A stretch of 64,000 bases of DNA, taken from positions 118,236 through 182,235 of the forward strand of contig JAZQJV010000018.1 of NCBI GenBank assembly GCA_045541795.1. Reading direction: 5' to 3'. This document shows, in pieces, positions 835-22,195 of this stretch. The translations under genes and the position numbers were made by a program. The first letter of the stretch is position 1; every line of letters begins with the position of its first letter. Under the pieces are notes generated by a model, which had not been told where the DNA came from, made no database searches, and worked only from the letters and a program-made list of their open reading frames with translations. Origin of the DNA: Patescibacteria group bacterium. Its GTDB lineage: Bacteria > Patescibacteriota > Microgenomatia > UBA1400 > PJMF01.

Positions 835-1374
835 GTGCCAACATTATTAACTGGAGGTTATATCACTTTTGCCTGGAAATCCATATGCGACCATCATGAC
901 TATAATCGTATTGATTTGCATGCCTTTAGACTGGACAATAGCTTTACTTATACAGTTTCACTTACAGTCAATTATGACAAGGTTAATCTTTTAGAGAAAC
1001 TGCCAGTCTTACCAAAGTTCGAACAATTATTTATAACTTTCAATCAACCACAAATGCTACTGACCGATACTTTATTGTGGCACGCTGATCGTTGTTACCA
1101 ATTTCAGGGACAAACATTCAATTATGTCCTCATCAGAGCACTGGTAAAAGCCAATGGAGAAATTCCCTGGAACGATCAGCTGCTGCTGATGTATGATCCT
1201 GGTCCTCTTCATCTAAGTAGCTCGAAAATAGATGATAGAAGTACTTTAATTTGTCGTGCTATAGATGACCTTAACTTGGAGCTCAAACAAAAACTTAAAA
1301 TGAATTTTACACCGATACACAGACGTAAAAATAAATTTATTAAATTTGATAAACAAATTATACTATCGACATAG
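835..1374 (+). CDS. Hypothetical protein in the AT-rich region
   Basis: ORF of 179 aa with no recognisable motif. Its low GC matches the surrounding island. Confidence 0.35.
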   Translation: MPTLLTGGYITFAWKSICDHHDYNRIDLHAFRLDNSFTYTVSLTVNYDKVNLLEKLPVLPKFEQLFITFNQPQMLLTDTLLWHADRCYQFQGQTFNYVLIRALVKANGEIPWNDQLLLMYDPGPLHLSSSKIDDRSTLICRAIDDLNLELKQKLKMNFTPIHRRKNKFIKFDKQIILST

Positions 1375-1469
1375 ACTCACTTAGCTGGAGTTACTCTAGG
1401 CTCAGTTTTTGCTTCTCTGGTAGTTTAATATCCCTGTCTAGAAATTAGTCGAGGCTATTAAACGACCGC

Positions 1470-1679
1470 ATGAGACAGAGCACAATAGTAGTACCAGCTC
1501 GCACCGACATCGGGAAAAAATATCGTACTAGCTACGACCCTATATCAGAGCAGGACGTTCACGATTTTATTGCTGCCGTTAAGGCAGATAGTGGATGGGT
1601 ATTGAAGTTTGATGAGGCAAAACAAACAGCCAATGATTTAATAGAGTTGGCCAAATTAGTCAATAAATATCAGGAATAA
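1470..1679 (+). CDS. Hypothetical small protein (69 aa)
   Basis: ORF only. It sits just upstream of the YhcG-like gene. Confidence 0.3.
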   Translation: MRQSTIVVPARTDIGKKYRTSYDPISEQDVHDFIAAVKADSGWVLKFDEAKQTANDLIELAKLVNKYQE

Positions 1680-1735
1680 CTGTCTTAAAAGTCTTGCATT
1701 TTTAATCAATTTGTGATATAAAGACCACATTAATT

Positions 1736-2824
1736 ATGACAAACACAAAAAAGATCCAGACAGTTACTAGTAACGATATGTCGATGTCTAATGATCAAGA
1801 GTATCGGGAATGGTTAGTCGACTTAAAAACAAGATATCAACATAGTCGCATTAAAGCATCTATAAAAATTAATTATGAGGTCATTTTTTATTACTGGTCT
1901 GTTGGTCGTGACATTGTGATTAAAAAAGCCGAATCAAAATGGGGTAGTGGTTTTTATGATAATTTGAGTCGCGATCTACGACGAGAATTACCTGGTATAC
2001 AGGGATTATCAAAAACAAATCTCAAATACATGAAGTACTTTTATGATCTTTTTCCAGATGTGTTTACTGATAAGTCAATTCGTCCACAAGTTGTGGACGA
2101 ATTGGAGCAAATACCTTGGGGACATATCCGATATATTATAGATAAGTGTCGCGGTGATCAACAAAAGGTGATATTTTTCATCAATAAGACCGTGGAAAAC
2201 AACTGGTCGAGAGCAATGCTGCTAAATTTCCTGGATACAGATCTTTACGAGAGGCAAGGGAAGGCGATTACGAATTTTACCAATAAGTTAGCTTCGCCTC
2301 AAGGAGAATTAGCTCAACAGCTTACCAAAGATCCTTACAGTTTTGACTTTCTTACTATGAGAGAAAACTATCAAGAAAAAGAGCTTAAGGATGCCCTGAT
2401 TGCTAATATTGAAAGATTTCTGCTGGAACTTGGCAAAGGTTTTGCTTATATGGGACGGGAATACCGCTTACAAATCGGTGAAACTGAAAAATTTATAGAT
2501 ATGCTCTTTTACAACACTGTCCTGCGTTGTTACGTGGTAGTAGAAGTCAAAGTGGAGAAATTTGAATCCGGACATTTAGGGCAATTGGGATTGTATGTGA
2601 CCGCGGTTAATCATCAGCTCAAAAACGAAACTGACAATCCCACTATCGGTCTGTTGATTTGCAAGAGCAAAGAGAATGTGGTGGCGAAATACTCGCTAGA
2701 AAGCATGGCGGTGCCGATCGGAATATCAGAATATGAGTTGCAAAAAATCTATCCCGCTGATTTCAAGAGTAGTTTGCCAACGATAGAGGAGATAGAGAAT
2801 GAGCTGGCTGATAATAACGATTAG
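1736..2824 (+). CDS. YhcG/DUF1016-family PD-(D/E)xK nuclease-like protein (copy 1)
   Basis: The N-terminal DUF1016-like region (YYWSVGRDIV...KAESKWGSGF...DLSRDL) and the C-terminal PD-ExK motif (FIDMLFYN...CYVVVEVK) are typical of the YhcG family. A paralog lies at 5609-6736. Confidence 0.65.
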   Translation: MTNTKKIQTVTSNDMSMSNDQEYREWLVDLKTRYQHSRIKASIKINYEVIFYYWSVGRDIVIKKAESKWGSGFYDNLSRDLRRELPGIQGLSKTNLKYMKYFYDLFPDVFTDKSIRPQVVDELEQIPWGHIRYIIDKCRGDQQKVIFFINKTVENNWSRAMLLNFLDTDLYERQGKAITNFTNKLASPQGELAQQLTKDPYSFDFLTMRENYQEKELKDALIANIERFLLELGKGFAYMGREYRLQIGETEKFIDMLFYNTVLRCYVVVEVKVEKFESGHLGQLGLYVTAVNHQLKNETDNPTIGLLICKSKENVVAKYSLESMAVPIGISEYELQKIYPADFKSSLPTIEEIENELADNND

Positions 2825-2845
2825 TAAAAATTAAGGTAATAACAT

Positions 2846-4273
2846 ATGTTCACACCTTTTGGCAAGAATCTCGACAATCTAAGTTTTGAAGACATTCAAA
2901 AATTTTGCGATAAAGGTGTTGCTGAAAATATTTATATTGATTACAAGAAAGAAATTAATCAGAAGAATGATCATCTTGCCAAAACTATTGCGTCCTTTGC
3001 TAATACACATGGCGGCTGGATAATAATTGGAGTAGAAGATAAGAATGATCGTCCAAACTCTCCATTTAACGGGATTGACTATACAGATGGAATAGAGTCT
3101 AGTATAACTACTATAATTGTTGACAATATTTATCCATATGTCGAAGTTACATCAAAGGTTATTGTCAACCATGATAATAAAAGAGCTTTTGTTGTAGTGT
3201 ATGTCCCAGAAAGTCATAAAACACCACATTGGATTAACAGCAGAAGGGATCTTTATATTAGAGCTAATACTAGAACAAAAACTGGCAGAGATGATATTAA
3301 GAATAAAAACGAAGACTTGGATATTTACGCCACTTCTGAAAATTGGGAATTCTTAAGAAATAAAAGGGAAAGGTCTCAACAACTGGCAATAGAATTGGAA
3401 ACAGCTTTAAATCGTTTGTTTCTATCATATAAAGATAAAGAAGAACGTTTGTGGTATCAAAATAACGAAAAAGTTAAAAATAATCCGTCGCTGCAAAGTA
3501 TAATATCTGAAGATATGGATACACTCGACTGTGCAGATCCAAGTATCACAACAATTAAAAATAGGCGAGAGTTCAGAAGCGAATGTTATCATGATAACAT
3601 TAGTATTATTGTCCAGCCAGTTTTCCCATCATACGCTATTTCTTCACCGCGTGATTTGAGAGAACACTATTCGTCTAACAGCGGTGCAAACCTCACTAAC
3701 GTTGGTTCACTTGACGAAAACTACAAACTTGATTATTTTCAAAACGGGATAGTAACTTTTTTTACTCCCGACAATAAGACAGGCAACCATTGCGCATTTT
3801 TTGCTCAAGACATCTTTGGTTCGTGCATGGTAAAACACAAGATAGTTCAACACAATCGAAAGAAGATTGATAACTACCAGGGTTATGAAGTGCCGCCAAA
3901 TAGTAACATTATTGACTTTGAATACTTGATAGTTTATATTGAACAATTTTTAAAATATGCATCAGTTTTTTATAAACAAATTGGTTATTTAGGCGAACTT
4001 AGACTTAAGGTGGTCATGAATGTGCCAGAATGGTCATATATGATAATTCATGATTCAACCAAGAATTTTCCGCTTGCATATAGTAATTCTGATAAATATT
4101 TTCTTTGGGAGAAAGTTTTTATTAATGCTGATTTTGTTAACGATCAAGAACGAAATAAAATACTAAATACTATGTATGAAAGTATTGGATTCTTTTTTAA
4201 TTGTGACGAAATTCCTAAACAAATAATTAATAATCTGAGAAAGAATCCAAATAATGCTAATGAGCAACTTTAA
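2846..4273 (+). CDS. AlbA_2 (Schlafen-like, divergent AAA-4) domain protein with an uncharacterised C-terminal region of about 350 aa
   Basis: The N-terminal motif TIASFANTHGGWIIIGVED matches the AlbA_2 DNA-binding domain signature. It lies 21 nt after the YhcG-like gene with an SD (aaggt), so a two-gene operon is likely. Confidence 0.6.
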   Translation: MFTPFGKNLDNLSFEDIQKFCDKGVAENIYIDYKKEINQKNDHLAKTIASFANTHGGWIIIGVEDKNDRPNSPFNGIDYTDGIESSITTIIVDNIYPYVEVTSKVIVNHDNKRAFVVVYVPESHKTPHWINSRRDLYIRANTRTKTGRDDIKNKNEDLDIYATSENWEFLRNKRERSQQLAIELETALNRLFLSYKDKEERLWYQNNEKVKNNPSLQSIISEDMDTLDCADPSITTIKNRREFRSECYHDNISIIVQPVFPSYAISSPRDLREHYSSNSGANLTNVGSLDENYKLDYFQNGIVTFFTPDNKTGNHCAFFAQDIFGSCMVKHKIVQHNRKKIDNYQGYEVPPNSNIIDFEYLIVYIEQFLKYASVFYKQIGYLGELRLKVVMNVPEWSYMIIHDSTKNFPLAYSNSDKYFLWEKVFINADFVNDQERNKILNTMYESIGFFFNCDEIPKQIINNLRKNPNNANEQL

Positions 4274-4299
4274 CTTCCCGTCTCAAAAACTCCCCAATC

Positions 4300-4365
4300 A
4301 TGCTATAATCAACCTCAAGTAACTGGGTTCGGATTTCCCGCCAGAAACCACCAAAAAATAGGATA
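4300..4365. repeat. Direct repeat copy 1: TATAAT box, 15 nt, then conserved 30-mer gggttcggatttcccgccagaaaccacc
   Basis: Aligns over about 65 bp with 6835-6902. The 30-mer (4325-4352) is identical apart from one base. Confidence 0.7.
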
Positions 4366-4423
4366 TTGAAGTACGCAAATTATATCCATATAAAAACGAT
4401 ATTTTAAGCAAATTATTTGGTAT

Positions 4424-5602
4424 TTAATCATTATTGTTAATGTTTAAAAGTAATTGTAATCTTTTCATGATTTCATCGAATGTTATTATTATATTTCTGG
4501 AAACACTCTTTCTGAATAAGTTGAACGATCTTTCTTGTTCTTCAAGAAGTCCTGATTTGTTACCGATAATAATTATTCCTAATGGATCAAGAGCATTCAA
4601 GCGGTTATCTTCATAATCTTTTCCAATAAGAGTTGAAAAATTATCACTCGCAATTCTAATTTGATTTTCTAGTTGAACTATCGCACCACTCAATTCGTCA
4701 GACATGGAATAGCACACATTCTCTCCAACGGCATCTGAATTGCCTCTATATTGATGTCCAATAATGGCACTTTGCGGTGTTTTAATTTCAATAACTGCAA
4801 AGCTTTTATTTGAAAGATTTTGCAAAAGAAAATCAGCGGCGACTCCTCCTTGGCCGTTTCTTCCACGACTGTTCTTTCCTCCTAGATATGTTTCGCCATT
4901 CAAATAACAGACTGGACAATAAAACAAACTCTCAAAAATCCACTGATTTTCTGTGAAGAATGCTTGCCAAAAGTTTTCTTTTTGGTTATTATTCATATTT
5001 TTCGCAATTGTATTAATTGCATTCTGCAATTTGGCTAGTAATATAATATTTTCTAATACTCTGATGTTTCCTTTTCCTAAATCTCTTAACTTGGTAATAA
5101 CCATTTCCTTATTTTTAATATCGCCAATTTGCAATAAAACACTTTCTATATTTCCTTCTCCAATAGATATTGTTGTGGTTCCAAATTTAATACCGTTTTC
5201 ATTTAGAGTCTCTCTAATTAACGGTAAATGCTCAAAGAGATTTTTCATGGCTTCACCATCAAGGTTGAGATCATAAAATTCTCCTTTTCTTAACTTAGTA
5301 ACAGATAGGCCTTTATAACTTTGCCAGTTGTCATTAATTCCTTTTCTTTCCCATCTGAAACCTCCTCGCAATGGTTTGTCAGTTTGAGATGGGTCTACCC
5401 ACTTTGGGTAAAAAAGTAATCTTGTGCTTTCAGTTTCTTTTAGTATAATTGGGGAAATATCAGCGGTTTTATTGGAAGTAGATTTTATTGTTATATCTTT
5501 TGATTCTTTCTGTTTGTCTGTAAATCCCTTGCGAGGTAGCGTGAAATCTATTTCTCCTGAAATATTGCTAAAATCATATTTTGGAGTCATGGTGGCTTTC
5601 AA
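4424..5602 (-). CDS. Shedu-like (DUF4263) PD-(D/E)xK nuclease
   Basis: Of 392 aa. The C-terminal half carries WQAFFTENQWIFESLF, ADFLL and VIEIKTP (a D...ExK motif), and ends in NIIITFDEI, as DUF4263/SduA-type proteins do. It lies 6 nt downstream of YhcG-like copy 2 in the same orientation. Confidence 0.5.
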   Translation of the reverse strand: MKATMTPKYDFSNISGEIDFTLPRKGFTDKQKESKDITIKSTSNKTADISPIILKETESTRLLFYPKWVDPSQTDKPLRGGFRWERKGINDNWQSYKGLSVTKLRKGEFYDLNLDGEAMKNLFEHLPLIRETLNENGIKFGTTTISIGEGNIESVLLQIGDIKNKEMVITKLRDLGKGNIRVLENIILLAKLQNAINTIAKNMNNNQKENFWQAFFTENQWIFESLFYCPVCYLNGETYLGGKNSRGRNGQGGVAADFLLQNLSNKSFAVIEIKTPQSAIIGHQYRGNSDAVGENVCYSMSDELSGAIVQLENQIRIASDNFSTLIGKDYEDNRLNALDPLGIIIIGNKSGLLEEQERSFNLFRKSVSRNIIITFDEIMKRLQLLLNINNND

Positions 5603-5608
5603 TCAAAA

Positions 5609-6736
5609 TTACCTATTTGCTTCTAGCAACTTTTTCTCTATCTCCTCTATCGTCGGCATCGTTCCTTCCACCTTTTGCGGATACAACTTCTCCAGTTCGT
5701 ACTCCGAAATTCCCAATGGTTGATTGCTAGATTCCAAAGCATACTGAGCGATTAAATTATCTTTTTGCTTGCAAATGAGCAAACCGATAGTCGGATTATC
5801 TCGTCCTTCTTTTTGTAAAAGGTGATTGCAAGAAACCACGTAACCGCCAAGTTGCCCCAAATCGGCAAAATCAAATTCGCCAATTTTCACTTCAACCACA
5901 ACGTAACAAGACAACTGTAAATTATAGAAAAGCAAATCAATAAATTTTTCTTTCTCGCCGATTTGCAGTCGATACTCTTTTCCCACATACGCGAAGCCCG
6001 TGCCAAGTTCTAATAAAAATTTGGTTATATTTTCTAGCAGGGCATCTTTTAATTTACGTTCATTGTATTTATCGGTAATACCAGTAAAAGCAAAATTATA
6101 TGGATCTTTTGTTAATTCCTGAGCTAAATCGCTAGTAACATTGGGTAAGGTTTTGCCAAAATTCGTCAATGCTTTTCCTCGTCGATCATAAAGATCGGTT
6201 TCAATAAAATTGAGTAGCATATCTCGGCTCCAACCATTTTCTATTGTTTGGTGAACAAAAAAGAGTGCTTTTTGTGGTTCTGTTTTGAATTTATCAATTA
6301 ACAGCTTATGATGGCCCCACGGAACAGAAAAAATGTCGCTTTCAATTTTCTCAATGACTTGCTGAGTAATTACATTACTTTCTATTTGCTCCCCAACTTG
6401 GGGAGCAATTTCGAAATATTGATGGTAAAGTATATAAAAGTTTTTCATGTACAACAAATTTGTCGGCGAAAAACACGTTGCGTCAGGATTGAGAGTTTTA
6501 AGGTCTCGGCTGAGATTTTTCATGAAACCACTGCTCCATTTACTTTCGGCTTTCATTACCACAATGTCTCTGCCCAAATCATAGTAAAAACGAAGCATTT
6601 CCCGATTAACTTTTACTGCTGCTCTAACTTGGCTCAAGCGATAACGAGAAGAAAGCTTCCCAATCCACGAGGCATAATTTTCATCTAGAATTGTTAGTGA
6701 CTGAACTTGTTTTGCAACCTGTTTTTTCTCTGTCAT
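5609..6736 (-). CDS. YhcG/DUF1016-family PD-(D/E)xK nuclease-like protein (copy 2)
   Basis: Clearly paralogous to 1736-2824 (RFYYDLGRDIVVMKAESKWSSGF; FIDLLFYN...CYVVVEVK). It is the first gene of the minus-strand two-gene operon. Confidence 0.65.
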   Translation of the reverse strand: MTEKKQVAKQVQSLTILDENYASWIGKLSSRYRLSQVRAAVKVNREMLRFYYDLGRDIVVMKAESKWSSGFMKNLSRDLKTLNPDATCFSPTNLLYMKNFYILYHQYFEIAPQVGEQIESNVITQQVIEKIESDIFSVPWGHHKLLIDKFKTEPQKALFFVHQTIENGWSRDMLLNFIETDLYDRRGKALTNFGKTLPNVTSDLAQELTKDPYNFAFTGITDKYNERKLKDALLENITKFLLELGTGFAYVGKEYRLQIGEKEKFIDLLFYNLQLSCYVVVEVKIGEFDFADLGQLGGYVVSCNHLLQKEGRDNPTIGLLICKQKDNLIAQYALESSNQPLGISEYELEKLYPQKVEGTMPTIEEIEKKLLEANR

Positions 6737-6834
6737 AGTGGCTATTACTTATAGCACAATAACGCTATTTTGTCAATACTGATAATTAATTATTATTGGC
6801 ATTTATTTTCAATTCTTGCAAAAACAACTTCATA

Positions 6835-6902
6835 CTGTTATAATCAGTTTCAAATAATTGGGTGCGGATTTCCCGCCAGAAACCACCCCAAAAAGATGGG
6901 AT
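6835..6902. repeat. Direct repeat copy 2: TATAAT box, 15 nt, then conserved 30-mer (6860-6887)
   Basis: Same spacing and sequence as copy 1. Here it serves as promoter and leader of the zinc-ribbon/TM2 gene. Confidence 0.7.
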
Positions 6903-6922
6903 TACTGCGATGAAAGTGAAAC

Positions 6923-7256
6923 ATGACAGATGAAAAAACAAAATACTGTAAACATTGCGGTTCGCTTATTGATGTAGAATTGCATAATATGCCCGAAGTG
7001 TGGCAAGCAGGTCGAACAAGTAAAAGCCGAGCTTCCAAATGTAGTGATCAATAACAATAACACCAATTCGAATATAAACTATGCTGGTGCTGTGGGGAGC
7101 GGGCGGCCTATCAATAAGTGGATAGCTTTGGGTTTATGTCTTTTTCTGGGCATATTCGGTGCTCATAAGTTTTATGAAGGAAAGATTGGCATGGGAATAT
7201 TGTATTTGTTTACATTTGGTTTGTTTAGTCTTGGTTGGTTTTTAGATATTTTTTAA
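6923..7256 (+). pseudogene. Zinc-ribbon plus TM2-domain membrane protein split by an apparent +1 frameshift
   Basis: Frame A reads MTDEKTKYCKHCGSLIDVELHN.... The TM2 frame reads ...CPKCGKQVEQVKAELPNVV then INNNN...GAHKFYEGKIGMGILYLF (TM2 domain). The two CxxC halves of one zinc ribbon sit in different frames around position 6989. Confidence 0.5.
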
Positions 7257-7355
7257 TCCTAACAAAGCCTAATCCTTATTACATATAATACTTTTACATT
7301 TGCGTTTTTATTATAACTACGTTATAATAACACAAACTTTAAGGAAAATATAAAC

Positions 7356-8429
7356 ATGAAAAATCATCGAAAATTCCATCCTCGCATTATTGTCAATATC
7401 ATCTGTCTTTTTTCATTGGCATTATCTCACATTATTTTTTCGCTACCGATTAAAATAATTGATACAGTTTATGCCGTCGAGCGTGAAACTGTCACTGTGA
7501 GCCGTGTGATTGATGGTGATACAATCGTTTTGAATGATGGGCGAAAGGTTAGATATATTGGAATTGATACACCAGAAACAGTTCATCCAACAAAAAATGT
7601 GCAGTGTTTTGGGAAACAAGCCAGTAACAAAAATAGAGAATTAGTCCTTGGTAAAACTGTGGAACTGGAAAAAGATATCAGTGAAACTGATCGCTATGGA
7701 CGTTTACTCAGATATGTATATTTGGATGGCGTCATGATTAATCATAAATTAGTCGCTGAAGGTTATGCCACAACCGTAACCTATCCTCCAGATGTTAAGT
7801 ATAAAGAAGAATTCTCCAAAGCTCAGGCGCAGGCAAGACAAGCAAGACTTGGGCTATGGGGTAATGAATGCAACGAAAGCAGCAGCACTCACGCATCCTC
7901 AAACAACAATGCTAGCTCAAATACAAATAAAATGGATTCGTCAAGCACATCGTCATCATCTCAAAACAACAAAACTCAAAATGACCATGAAGGCAACCAA
8001 GCTTCTACTCAACCAACTAACACTAGCGCACAAAAATGTCCATCAAATTGTAGTGAGGCCAAAAGCATGGGAATGGTTAACATTACACCGTCGCATCCAT
8101 GCTGGCAAGAAAAATTTGATGGCGATAAAGATGGCGTGGGTTGTGAAAGTGACAACCGGTCTACCAATACAAAAACAACTAACAAATCCAATAATGTCAA
8201 TAAACAGACCAGTGCTACGCCGGCACCCACGCCAGTGCCAAGTCGCGCCCCAACGCCAGAACCAACCCCACCGCCTACGTCAGTGCCAGCTCCAGCTGCG
8301 CCAACCCAATCTTGTCCAAATAACTGTACCCAAGCAAAGGCAATGGGAATGGCCAATATGACACCTTCTCATCCTTGTTGGCAATCTAAATTTGACCGAG
8401 ATAAAGACGGTATTGGTTGCGAAGACTAG
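7356..8429 (+). CDS. Secreted thermonuclease (SNase-like) with two C-terminal Excalibur calcium-binding domains
   Basis: SNase motifs are RYIGIDTPE and DRYGRLLRYVY. Two repeats of C..C...MG..N.TPSHPCW..KFD.DKDG.GCE follow. An N-terminal TM or signal segment is present. Confidence 0.75.
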   Translation: MKNHRKFHPRIIVNIICLFSLALSHIIFSLPIKIIDTVYAVERETVTVSRVIDGDTIVLNDGRKVRYIGIDTPETVHPTKNVQCFGKQASNKNRELVLGKTVELEKDISETDRYGRLLRYVYLDGVMINHKLVAEGYATTVTYPPDVKYKEEFSKAQAQARQARLGLWGNECNESSSTHASSNNNASSNTNKMDSSSTSSSSQNNKTQNDHEGNQASTQPTNTSAQKCPSNCSEAKSMGMVNITPSHPCWQEKFDGDKDGVGCESDNRSTNTKTTNKSNNVNKQTSATPAPTPVPSRAPTPEPTPPPTSVPAPAAPTQSCPNNCTQAKAMGMANMTPSHPCWQSKFDRDKDGIGCED

Positions 8430-8438
8430 AAAGTAAAA

Positions 8439-9119
8439 ATGTCACAAAAAGATAATAGCAAACATTCTTGCAGAATAATCATGGCCGCATTGCTAGTGCT
8501 TCTAAGCATTGCATTGCTGCATAAATCTTTTTTTGCTGCCGCCTTCACTATCTGCTACGCATATCTCATCTCGCCACTATCAATTCAATTGGTAAGTAAA
8601 ATATGTAAGAAAGAAAATGAGAAATGGCTATATTCAACCATGACTTTTATTTTTGCTCTTTGCTGGATGACCACAATTCAAACTGGTCAGCCACAAATGG
8701 ATAATGTGTTAACGCAAAATAGTGAAAAAAACGCATCGCTAGAGAATGCGTCAACACAAAATAATGAAAAAATCGCTTCACTAGAAAAAGAGCTCCAATC
8801 AGTTAAGAACGAAAGAGATGAAATTCAAGCAAACAACCAAAAAAGAGCCATTTCAGCTGCCAAATCATATTTGGAATACAGTCCAATGTCGAGCCGAGAG
8901 TTGATTAAGCAACTCGAGTTAGAAGAATTTTCTCATGAAGACGCAGCATACGGTGTAGAGCATGCTGATATCAATTGGAACGATCAAGCATCACGGTCAG
9001 CAGTCCTCTTTATTGAGTTTGCTAATCCGTCAACCGAAGAATTAAAAAAACAACTTGAGTACGAAGGTTTCACAAGCAACGAAATAAAATTCGCCATTGA
9101 GCATAATAGTAATGGGTAA
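8439..9119 (+). CDS. Membrane-anchored protein with two C-terminal Ltp-type repeats (phage superinfection-exclusion lipoprotein family)
   Basis: The repeats AKSYLEYSPMSSRELIKQLELEEFSHEDAAYGV and ...STEELKKQLEYEGFTSNEIKFAIEH match the Ltp repeat pattern (YL..S...LI.QLEYEGF...A.YAV). An N-terminal TM segment and a coiled-coil repeat region are present. Confidence 0.55.
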   Translation: MSQKDNSKHSCRIIMAALLVLLSIALLHKSFFAAAFTICYAYLISPLSIQLVSKICKKENEKWLYSTMTFIFALCWMTTIQTGQPQMDNVLTQNSEKNASLENASTQNNEKIASLEKELQSVKNERDEIQANNQKRAISAAKSYLEYSPMSSRELIKQLELEEFSHEDAAYGVEHADINWNDQASRSAVLFIEFANPSTEELKKQLEYEGFTSNEIKFAIEHNSNG

Positions 9120-20389: not shown

Positions 20390-22195
20390 ATGCAGTTTAG
20401 TAAATTAAGCCAGACGCTACTTGACATCGAAGCAATCAACGCGCGCTTGCAAATCACTCAGATTTTATCAAAACTCTGGCCGCAGCTGGACGAGCGTGAA
20501 TTATGGCAAGCTGCCAACCTTATCCAGGGACAATTACAACCGCCCTATGAACAGCTTGTTTTTAGTCTGTCCGTGAAAATGATCGCCCGCGCTCTGGTGC
20601 AGCTGGCGCTCGCCAATGGTGGCTTGGCTGGCGGCGTAAGTGTGGATTTATTTGGGCAAGCTGATGAACAGTCACTTACTGATCAAATTAAAGCGATACA
20701 TCGCCGTTTTGGTGACTGGGGCGAGACGGCAGCGTCAGTGCACACCGAGCTTTTTGGTGCAAAAGGCTCTAATTTGAGCATTAATGATGTGTATACCAGA
20801 CTGACCGCGATTGCCAAGATCAGTGGCGACGGTTCACAACAGGCTAAGCTTGATGCCTTGGTCTCTTTACTGTCTGCAATTGATGCCTCGAGTGCTAAAT
20901 TTGTGATCAGGATGGTGATCGGCAAACTGCGTTTGGGTTTTTCTACGATGACGATTTTAGACAGCCTTTCGTGGGCGGTTTGCGGTGATAAATCCGAAAG
21001 CAAACTGCTAGAAAGCGCCTGGCAAAAAAAAGCTGATGTTGGCTTACTGGCGGCCGCCTACTTGCCACTGCAAAACCTCACGCCGCTCAAGCGCCGGGAA
21101 AAATTAGCTGCAGACTATCACGCGAGCGTGGGCGTACCTTTAGTGCCGGCTTTGTGCCAACGGCTCAATTCTACCACTGACATCATCGAAAAGGTGGGCG
21201 CTACCATCGCTGAGCCTAAATATGATGGCATGCGCATCCAAATTCACGTCCGCCGTCAGGGTGGGCTGCAAGTTTTTGCTTTCACCAGGAGTTTGGAAAA
21301 TGTTTCTCACATGTTTCCAGAGCTACAAGAATTTGCCAGTAGCCTCGATGTGGATGCCGCCATTTTTGACTCAGAAGCTGTGGGCTTTAATGCTCACACC
21401 GGGCAGATGTTGCCTTTCCAAGAGACCATTAGTCGGCGTCGGCTTCACGACGTCGATCAAAAAGCTCAGTCCATCAAAATGAAATTTTTCATTTTTGACG
21501 TTTTACTTTTAAATGAGCAGGAACTCATCACGACGCCCTTGGCTGAGCGCAAAAAACTACTGCGCCAAACAGTTGCCGATAGCGACGTCGCGCAGGTGAC
21601 GAGTTTTATCGTCACTAGTGATCCCGGACAGCTGCGCCAGTTCCATGAACGCCAGCTCCAGCTTGGTCTGGAGGGGATGGTGGCCAAAGGGGAGAGCAGT
21701 GATTATCAAAGCGGCCGCAAAGGCTGGCACTGGGTCAAGATTAAAGAAGCAGAAGGTACTCGTGGCAAGCTCAATGACACCCTTGATTTAGTAGTCATGG
21801 GTTATTATTATGGTCAGGGCCGGCGGCATGATATGGGCGTGGGAGCGATTCTTACAGGCGTGTTGGCAGATAATGGTGATATTGTCACGATCAGCAAAAT
21901 CGGCACCGGCTTTACTGATGAAAATCTTTCTTCCTTCCACTCTCAAGCAGAAAATTACCGTACAGATACCAAGCCCACCGACTACCAAGTAGGCAAGCAG
22001 CTGATACCGGATGTGTGGTTGAGGCCGCACCTAGTAGCCGAAATTGCTGCTGACGAGCTTACTCGCTCTACCATGCATACAAGCGGCTACGGCCTCCGTT
22101 TCCCCCGCATTATCCGGTGGCGAGACGATAAAACCGCTGCTCAAGCTACCACCCGCAGCGAGCTGGCATCCATTACTATAGATAAAGGAGATTAA
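20390..22195 (+). CDS. ATP-dependent DNA ligase
   Basis: Adenylation motif I is KYDGMR (KxDG), within a 601-aa eukaryotic/archaeal-type ligase architecture. Confidence 0.75.
   Translation: MQFSKLSQTLLDIEAINARLQITQILSKLWPQLDERELWQAANLIQGQLQPPYEQLVFSLSVKMIARALVQLALANGGLAGGVSVDLFGQADEQSLTDQIKAIHRRFGDWGETAASVHTELFGAKGSNLSINDVYTRLTAIAKISGDGSQQAKLDALVSLLSAIDASSAKFVIRMVIGKLRLGFSTMTILDSLSWAVCGDKSESKLLESAWQKKADVGLLAAAYLPLQNLTPLKRREKLAADYHASVGVPLVPALCQRLNSTTDIIEKVGATIAEPKYDGMRIQIHVRRQGGLQVFAFTRSLENVSHMFPELQEFASSLDVDAAIFDSEAVGFNAHTGQMLPFQETISRRRLHDVDQKAQSIKMKFFIFDVLLLNEQELITTPLAERKKLLRQTVADSDVAQVTSFIVTSDPGQLRQFHERQLQLGLEGMVAKGESSDYQSGRKGWHWVKIKEAEGTRGKLNDTLDLVVMGYYYGQGRRHDMGVGAILTGVLADNGDIVTISKIGTGFTDENLSSFHSQAENYRTDTKPTDYQVGKQLIPDVWLRPHLVAEIAADELTRSTMHTSGYGLRFPRIIRWRDDKTAAQATTRSELASITIDKGD

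Follow-up and report, generated by a model that had tools for sequence, protein, structure and literature searches.

The 64,000-nt window analysed here (positions 118,236 to 182,235 of contig JAZQJV010000018.1, from a Patescibacteria group bacterium) carries, at 2846-4273 on the forward strand, a gene whose 475-aa product is probably a single-polypeptide anti-phage Schlafen (a prokaryotic Schlafen nuclease, or pSlfn), in which an N-terminal tRNase effector would be joined to a non-catalytic C-terminal sensor or regulatory module. The open reading frame (ORF) is exactly the one picked out by an earlier sequence-only reading of the window, which had described an AlbA_2 (Schlafen-like) domain, matched here by PF04326, fused to an uncharacterised C-terminal region. 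The feature is genuine and correctly delimited; the roles proposed for its two halves, with a sensor at the N-terminus and a novel effector behind it, need inverting. The protein is a new, uncharacterised member of a system type described in 2025-2026, not a new type. The parts of the gene are:

2846..4273, + strand: Schlafen-family gene, complete, ATG-to-stop ORF of 475 aa, stop codon included
2924..3280, + strand: Schlafen/AlbA_2 nuclease domain (aa 27-145 by Pfam; the fold begins at about aa 1)
2924..2947, + strand: catalytic motif E27-x4-D32-x-K34 (the GAA AAT ATT TAT ATT GAT TAC AAA region)
2990..3040, + strand: Schlafen box A49-S-F-A-N53, then T-x-G56-G57, the strand IIIGV and the acidic pair E64-D65
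3311..3463, + strand: linker and long alpha-helix, aa 156-206 (from conservation counts; helix 164-206 in the structure model)
3473..3565, + strand: lineage-specific insertion, aa 210-240 (from gap analysis and a low predicted local distance difference test score, pLDDT)
3593..4270, + strand: family-specific alpha+beta domain at the C-terminus, aa 250-475, a proposed module for sensing, regulation or assembly

In the explanation favoured here, the N-terminal domain would be a divalent-cation-dependent endoribonuclease with tRNA as its target, whose action stops translation in the infected cell. The C-terminal module, made up of the conserved helix and the alpha+beta domain and presumably non-catalytic, would hold the nuclease silent until it detects some infection cue, and would then switch it on, probably through a change in oligomeric state. 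Protection against phage would be the expected outcome, whatever the nature of the trigger may be.

The N-terminal domain and its catalytic motif

The SLFN_AlbA_2 family, PF04326, matches the protein over aa 27-145 (E = 6.9e-17; 62.5 bits, with a cut-off of 25.3). The two-part layout of the sequence-only reading stands, with its extents adjusted: the known domain runs to about aa 145 rather than about 120, and about 330 aa remain rather than about 350. Conservation counts, the alignment and the domain scans all refer, here and below, to 78 full-length family members. In these the catalytic motif is kept almost throughout (E27 in 76/78, D/E32 in 77/78 and K34 in 77/78), and around the Schlafen box N53, G56, G57 and G62 are invariant (78/78), with A52 present in 75. 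Residues 47-65 of the window protein form the peptide TIASFANTHGGWIIIGVED; its box reads A49-S-F-A-N53-T-H-G-G-W-I-I-I-G-V, the family consensus being A-S/A-F-A-N-T-x-G-G-x-I-x-I-G-V, and it aligns with "SAFANTQGGYVLIGVDD" of SLFN14 and SLFN13.

The best match of the family profile among PDB sequences is CbCash, a CRISPR-associated Schlafen (PDB 9ylu; E = 1.6e-8). In the profile alignment the family E, D and K fall on CbCash E17, D22 and K24, which make up an Mg2+-binding E-D-K centre in which E17Q, D22N or K24A abolishes tRNA cleavage (Weickert et al., PMC13462974). Ex4(E/D)xK is also the conserved signature of 5,930 prokaryotic Schlafens (Perez Taboada et al., PMC13056530), and the "SAFAN" Schlafen box has been described together with a D32A change that destroys both tRNA cleavage and phage protection in SLFN-pAgo (bioRxiv 10.64898/2026.05.29.728809). 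In the three prokaryotic systems studied experimentally, all published in 2026, the Schlafen domain is the tRNase effector and the sensors fused to it are variable (PMC13056530; PMC13462974; bioRxiv 10.64898/2026.05.29.728809). This effector role, and the nearly family-wide retention of Ex4(D/E)xK and the SAFAN box, speak against the AlbA_2 domain as the sensor. The window protein has every sequence and structural mark of a prokaryotic Schlafen nuclease: the PF04326 score, Ex4(E/D)xK, the SAFAN box with its glycine/hydrophobic core, the fold and the location among defence genes.

The C-terminal region as a family-specific domain

Past aa 145 the sequence-only reading had recognised no known motif, and this holds across the collections searched: the C-terminal region has no match in Pfam, NCBIfam, PHROGs, PADLOC or PDB sequences. 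The first four gave nothing for the region as a single sequence or member by member at E <= 1, its profile matched nothing among PDB sequences, and a permissive scan of 30 C-terminal regions turned up no recurrent family. A helix-turn-helix (HTH) or HATPase domain, or another catalogued regulatory domain, which that reading had named as evidence against a novel domain, was looked for in the C-terminal region and not found. The HATPase_c_4/GHKL and winged-helix HTH domains that follow AlbA_2 in proteins of the AlbA_2-HTH/HATPase type have no Pfam match in the query or in the 78 relatives. PF04326 itself is present in all 78, with no other Pfam domain save one marginal gp32 match (E = 0.007) in one member.

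The region is a real, rare conserved domain that always occurs with a Schlafen domain. Word-indexed searches found few relatives (four among 5.8 billion clusters, and three proteins when a profile was used), and an exhaustive HMMER search of 1.84 billion proteins, with a profile confined to the C-terminal region, returned 107 representatives at E <= 1e-3; of these, 31 reached E <= 1e-10 and 8 reached E <= 1e-30. Nearly all members are 390-455 aa long, with the C-terminal match starting at about residue 140, and the two-domain layout is found in nearly all. A search of a genome collection with a 4-sequence alignment gave three related loci, two of them from candidate phyla radiation lineages.

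No other family member is as long as the window protein. With its close relative it shares a 31-residue insertion (aa 210-240) that is absent in >80% of the family and predicted to be disordered (pLDDT < 50 at aa 228-246). The C-terminal part had also been described as rich in Asn, Lys and Tyr: compared with the family mean, this is true of Asn (10.9% vs 5.1%) and not of Lys (7.0 vs 5.8) or Tyr (5.8 vs 5.2), and the Asn excess is ascribed to the AT-rich island in which the gene lies (34-38% GC) rather than to the domain family.

Past aa 145, polar positions reach >= 80% conservation only at E156, R174 (78/78), S177 and R/K181, and all of these lie in the linker or the long helix that come next after the Schlafen domain. 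A catalytic dyad or triad conserved among homologs, a check proposed in the sequence-only reading, was looked for in the alignment of 78; the alpha+beta domain has conserved Pro, Gly, Tyr and hydrophobic positions only (P258, P261, G301, G325, Y376, G380 and G383 among them). Judged from the alignment, this pattern points to a domain for structure or binding rather than to an enzyme.

A structure model built from four sequences was unusable (pLDDT 51) and was superseded by an AlphaFold2 (AF2) model from 78 sequences, with a pLDDT of 86.5 and a predicted template modelling score (pTM) of 0.87. Its parts are the Schlafen domain (aa 1-140), the helix 164-206, the low-confidence insertion and the alpha+beta domain. 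The first half of the latter is modelled as a strand (251-258), helices 268-281 and 283-286 and five strands between 296 and 336, and the second half as a strand (354-357), a helix (358-379), four strands within 384-426 and helices to 474. Foldseek searches of the PDB and BFVD matched the Schlafen domain alone. For the C-terminal domain the fold matches are weak, sequence relatives in Pfam/PDB are lacking, and there is no match to Ig-like, GHKL or HTH folds, or to Rossmann-like, CARF or SAVED ones. Two further possibilities, a duplication within the alpha+beta domain and a degenerate second lobe of the Schlafen type, had hhalign probabilities of 1-2% and were rejected at the sequence level.

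Genomic setting and alternative explanations

Positions 1 to ~8000 of the window have 34-38% GC, against ~47% across the remainder, which is chromosomal (dnaG, lepA, pgm and an ATP-dependent ligase gene). The Schlafen gene lies in this low-GC stretch, in a defence island in which two YhcG/PDC-S02 copies and Shedu are all within 3 kb, neighbours that agree with the link to defence drawn in the sequence-only reading:

1736..2824, + strand: YhcG/DUF1016 PD-(D/E)xK nuclease gene, PADLOC candidate PDC-S02 (Pfam YhcG_C, 7.6e-60; PADLOC PDC-S02, 3.3e-150)
4424..5602, - strand: Shedu gene sduA, convergent with the Schlafen gene (Pfam SduA_C and SduA_N; PADLOC SduA, 1.3e-68)
5609..6736, - strand: second YhcG/PDC-S02 paralog (Pfam and PADLOC; 53% identical to the first copy)

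The first YhcG gene lies upstream of the Schlafen gene at a distance of 21 nt, and the two are probably co-transcribed; no terminator-like site falls in the gap (overall, the counts of the promoter and terminator scan were no different from those of shuffled sequence). The main rival explanation, rather unlikely, is that the Schlafen protein is not autonomous and serves as a downstream partner of whatever DNA-targeting gene precedes it (YhcG here, restriction-modification (R-M) genes elsewhere): the C-terminal domain would read what the upstream system produces (for instance DNA ends, or a nuclease that is stalled or inhibited), with the tRNase serving as a back-up arm for abortive infection. 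The short gap without a terminator-like site is in keeping with this, and in the closest relative (locus L003; 82% DNA identity over window 1017-4347) YhcG and Schlafen genes again stand together, 19 nt apart and between different flanks. Among the 13 contexts compared (the window and 12 related loci), placement at the tail of an operon is also tight elsewhere, the gap to the upstream same-strand gene being 4-13 nt in L005 (hsdS), L015 (methylase), L001 (TIR) and L013. The L005 member lies directly 3' of hsdR-hsdM-hsdS and upstream of an OLD-family nuclease gene; that of L015 is directly 3' of a DpnII-type R-M operon, with the methylase gene upstream; and that of L001 starts 13 nt past a TIR protein gene. 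It has also been speculated that such proteins respond to restriction events (PMC13462974).

On the other hand, the upstream partner differs in nearly all contexts, and several members are without such a neighbour. YhcG is upstream only in the window and L003, which are close relatives, and absent in the other 11 contexts; an obligate YhcG-Schlafen two-gene system was rejected on this ground as a feature of the family. In L003, YhcG is intact (89% identical) beside a Schlafen gene frameshifted by a 1-nt deletion in an A-run, which argues that YhcG has no need of the Schlafen gene. Moreover, an operon-tail position is common among independently acting defence genes. No partner being conserved, the Schlafen protein is most simply an autonomous single-gene unit, often found at the tail of other defence operons.

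The L003 ortholog (3290-4698 of that locus) is split just past the Schlafen box into a 76-aa AlbA_2 fragment and a 412-aa ORF, which could reflect a pseudogene, phase variation or an assembly error.

Taken over all 13 contexts, recognisable defence genes occur in seven and R-M genes are adjacent in four. Besides those already mentioned, the L007 member adjoins genes for a type II restriction endonuclease and a methylase, with a DUF262-Schlafen fusion next, and the L011 member is near an Mrr-type restriction endonuclease gene. Those of L002 and L014 are near recombinase or integrase genes, and a phage small-terminase gene is adjacent to that of L010. No cas genes are found among the annotated neighbours in the window island and the 12 related loci. 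In L007, two different Schlafen genes stand in tandem, 5 nt apart: the family member (4291-5595) and then, at 5601-7853, a gene for a 750-aa DUF262(GmrSD_N)-...-AlbA_2 fusion, with an architecture as in the phage-protective EcoSlfn7 (PMC13056530).

A related and unlikely proposal is that the C-terminal module is an unrecognised class of sensor that monitors the preceding DNA-targeting gene, the tRNase providing a second abortive layer. If this were true, the gene would be a portable "guard" cassette that could be attached 3' of unrelated restriction-type operons, sensing, for example, DNA ends, cleavage products or inhibition of the nuclease by phage.

There is also a small chance that the C-terminal module is an oligomerisation scaffold only, with activation coming from elsewhere, as when a labile inhibitor is lost or host transcription or translation falls. 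Its conserved positions are structural (Pro, Gly, aromatic), and the characterised prokaryotic Schlafens need higher-order assembly, into a dodecamer and filament for CbCash and a tetramer for RzAgo (PMC13462974; bioRxiv 10.64898/2026.05.29.728809). Against this, no small partner gene is conserved: the 48-49-aa ORFs after the L001 and L002 homologs, a candidate for such a partner, are unrelated to each other and were rejected, and the window has no counterpart of them before the convergent Shedu gene. Also, a fast-evolving 225-aa domain, with ~20-25% identity between members, is more typical of a sensor under arms-race selection.

A role outside defence, as a housekeeping RNA-processing enzyme or a transcription-factor-like AlbA_2 protein, is very improbable. 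Some contexts lack defence genes, and the relatives P0019 (MBN2414541.1) and P0113 are labelled "ATP-binding protein" (NCBI) or "predicted HTH transcriptional regulator" (IMG); HTH, HATPase and ATPase domains are, however, not detectable in any of the 78 members, so that these names look like legacy AlbA_2 annotations. The distribution is also patchy and rare, and the gene has mobile-element neighbours and a place in a low-GC island. Equally hard to credit is the original model, with AlbA_2 as a nucleic-acid sensor and the C-terminal 330 aa as a new effector domain: a new effector enzyme there is disfavoured because no catalytic-type residues are conserved in it.

Several points nevertheless weigh against the favoured reading of the protein as an autonomous Schlafen effector with its own sensor. 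The sensing role of the C-terminal module is assigned by analogy and because catalytic residues are absent, and a mere assembly scaffold could look the same. Four of the 13 contexts (L006, L008, L010 and L013) have no recognisable defence or mobile-element gene; more generally, 30% of pSlfn genes are not close to known defence genes, and intact motifs are also found in some Schlafens whose roles are different or unknown (PMC13056530). The window copy could itself be altered in function, because it has the 31-aa insertion and lacks the (F/Y)P motif that precedes a conserved Q-x-G in 73/78 relatives; the motif is missing, at ~aa 292-296, from the close relative as well.

The island has several other features of its own. 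A 75-nt direct repeat (79% identical; 4284-4358 and 6819-6893), holding a TATAAT box and "GGGTKCGGATTTCCCGCCAGAAACCACC" and without an Rfam match, brackets the Shedu and second YhcG genes, and L003 has one copy, directly after its Schlafen gene (L003 4740-4792). Since the copies bracket the pair and L003 has only one, Shedu and the second YhcG look like a cassette inserted or recombined between repeats. The two YhcG paralogs (1736-2824, +; 5609-6736, -) are in inverted orientation around the Schlafen and Shedu genes, and their 3' ends form a 32-nt inverted repeat (2775-2806 and 5627-5658). Upstream, window 1017-1679 is conserved with the YhcG-Schlafen pair in L003; it takes in part of a 179-aa ORF (835-1374) and a 69-aa ORF (1470-1679), neither with a family match, and these two may belong to the same mobile module or operon as the pair.

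Farther downstream, 7356-8429 encodes a secreted-looking staphylococcal-nuclease homolog with two Excalibur Ca-binding domains parted by a low-complexity Ser/Asn/Thr/Pro linker, in which 111 nt are repeated (8037-8147 and 8313-8423). The next gene, at 8439-9119, encodes an Ltp-type lipoprotein, and members of this family are known from superinfection exclusion by phages. The ATP-dependent DNA ligase of the chromosomal part (20390-22195; 601 aa) is of the archaeal/eukaryotic-like dnl1 type, here in a bacterial chromosome. The LepA encoded there has its nearest named relatives, at 60-65% identity, in the Microgenomates/Patescibacteria group, and many large ORFs of the window have no NCBIfam match.

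Relation to known Schlafen systems and significance

RorSlfn5 (pSlfn5 of Raoultella ornithinolytica; PMC13056530) has several traits in common with the window protein: a single gene, an Ex4(E/D)xK Schlafen domain fused to a previously unknown domain, and a place in a defence island. In RorSlfn5 the fused domain is the phage sensor and the Schlafen domain the tRNase effector (PMC13056530). The RorSlfn5 sensor, which recognises the T5 tail assembly chaperone, is a beta-sandwich of the immunoglobulin-like kind (PMC13056530), whereas the window protein has a helix and an alpha+beta domain in this position, and no immunoglobulin-like beta-sandwich, the mark of pSlfn5, fused to its Schlafen domain.

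CbCash (PDB 9ylu; PMC13462974) likewise has E-x4-D-x-K and an N-terminal Schlafen domain followed by a C-terminal regulatory domain, a role that is putative in the window protein. It differs in that its C-terminal domain is a Csx15 Rossmann-like cA4 sensor and in its link to type III CRISPR, and the alignment with the family ends at CbCash residue 147, where the Schlafen domain ends. Of the two marks of this Cash group, a cyclic-oligoadenylate sensor of the Csx15 (CARF/SAVED-like Rossmann) kind and association with type III CRISPR-Cas, the window protein has neither.

SLFN-pAgo (RzAgo) and the mammalian SLFN11/13/14 share the Schlafen fold, E(x)4(D/E)xK and the SAFAN box with the window protein. 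In these proteins the tRNase needs a licence from a separate sensing module, and its active site forms through oligomerisation (bioRxiv 10.64898/2026.05.29.728809); they use an Argonaute and a GHKL ATPase, or a helicase domain, while the window protein has no NTPase. The mammalian proteins also have two Schlafen lobes per chain, and the window protein a single one. A similar design, with a shared nuclease core and variable sensors encoded in a single gene, is known from Shedu (SduA; PMC13056530), in which, however, the core is an unrelated PD-(D/E)xK DNase and the sensor is N-terminal.

By description, the "Cluster 4" Schlafens (Weickert et al., PMC13462974) are alike in having a Schlafen domain with an unknown C-terminal domain and in their association with R-M systems, although the window copy adjoins YhcG and Shedu and not R-M genes. 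The published pSlfn catalogue lists 55 named architectures ("TBP-like" among them, at 1.5%) and 558 unannotated clusters (PMC13056530). The family may be the "TBP-like" class or one of the unannotated clusters (PMC13056530), and may also, going by the description, be "Cluster 4" (PMC13462974).

The protein described here represents a rare family of compact, 400-475 aa two-domain proteins, often encoded at the end of R-M operons. Prokaryotic Schlafens were shown to be tRNA-cutting antiviral effectors in 2025-2026, and the main question about them is now how they are activated. To our knowledge, only three types of Schlafen sensor have been worked out: Csx15 with cA4, an Ig-like domain that senses the T5 chaperone, and Argonaute. 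The trigger of the present family, once found, would add a new activation route for Schlafen nucleases, and could also provide a test of the idea, published as a speculation, that restriction events elicit a response from such proteins (PMC13462974). For annotation, the practical lesson is to take "AlbA_2" in a bacterial defence protein as the sign of a probable nuclease effector and not of a sensor. The value of the finding lies in the C-terminal candidate sensor domain and in its recurrent attachment to restriction-type operons.
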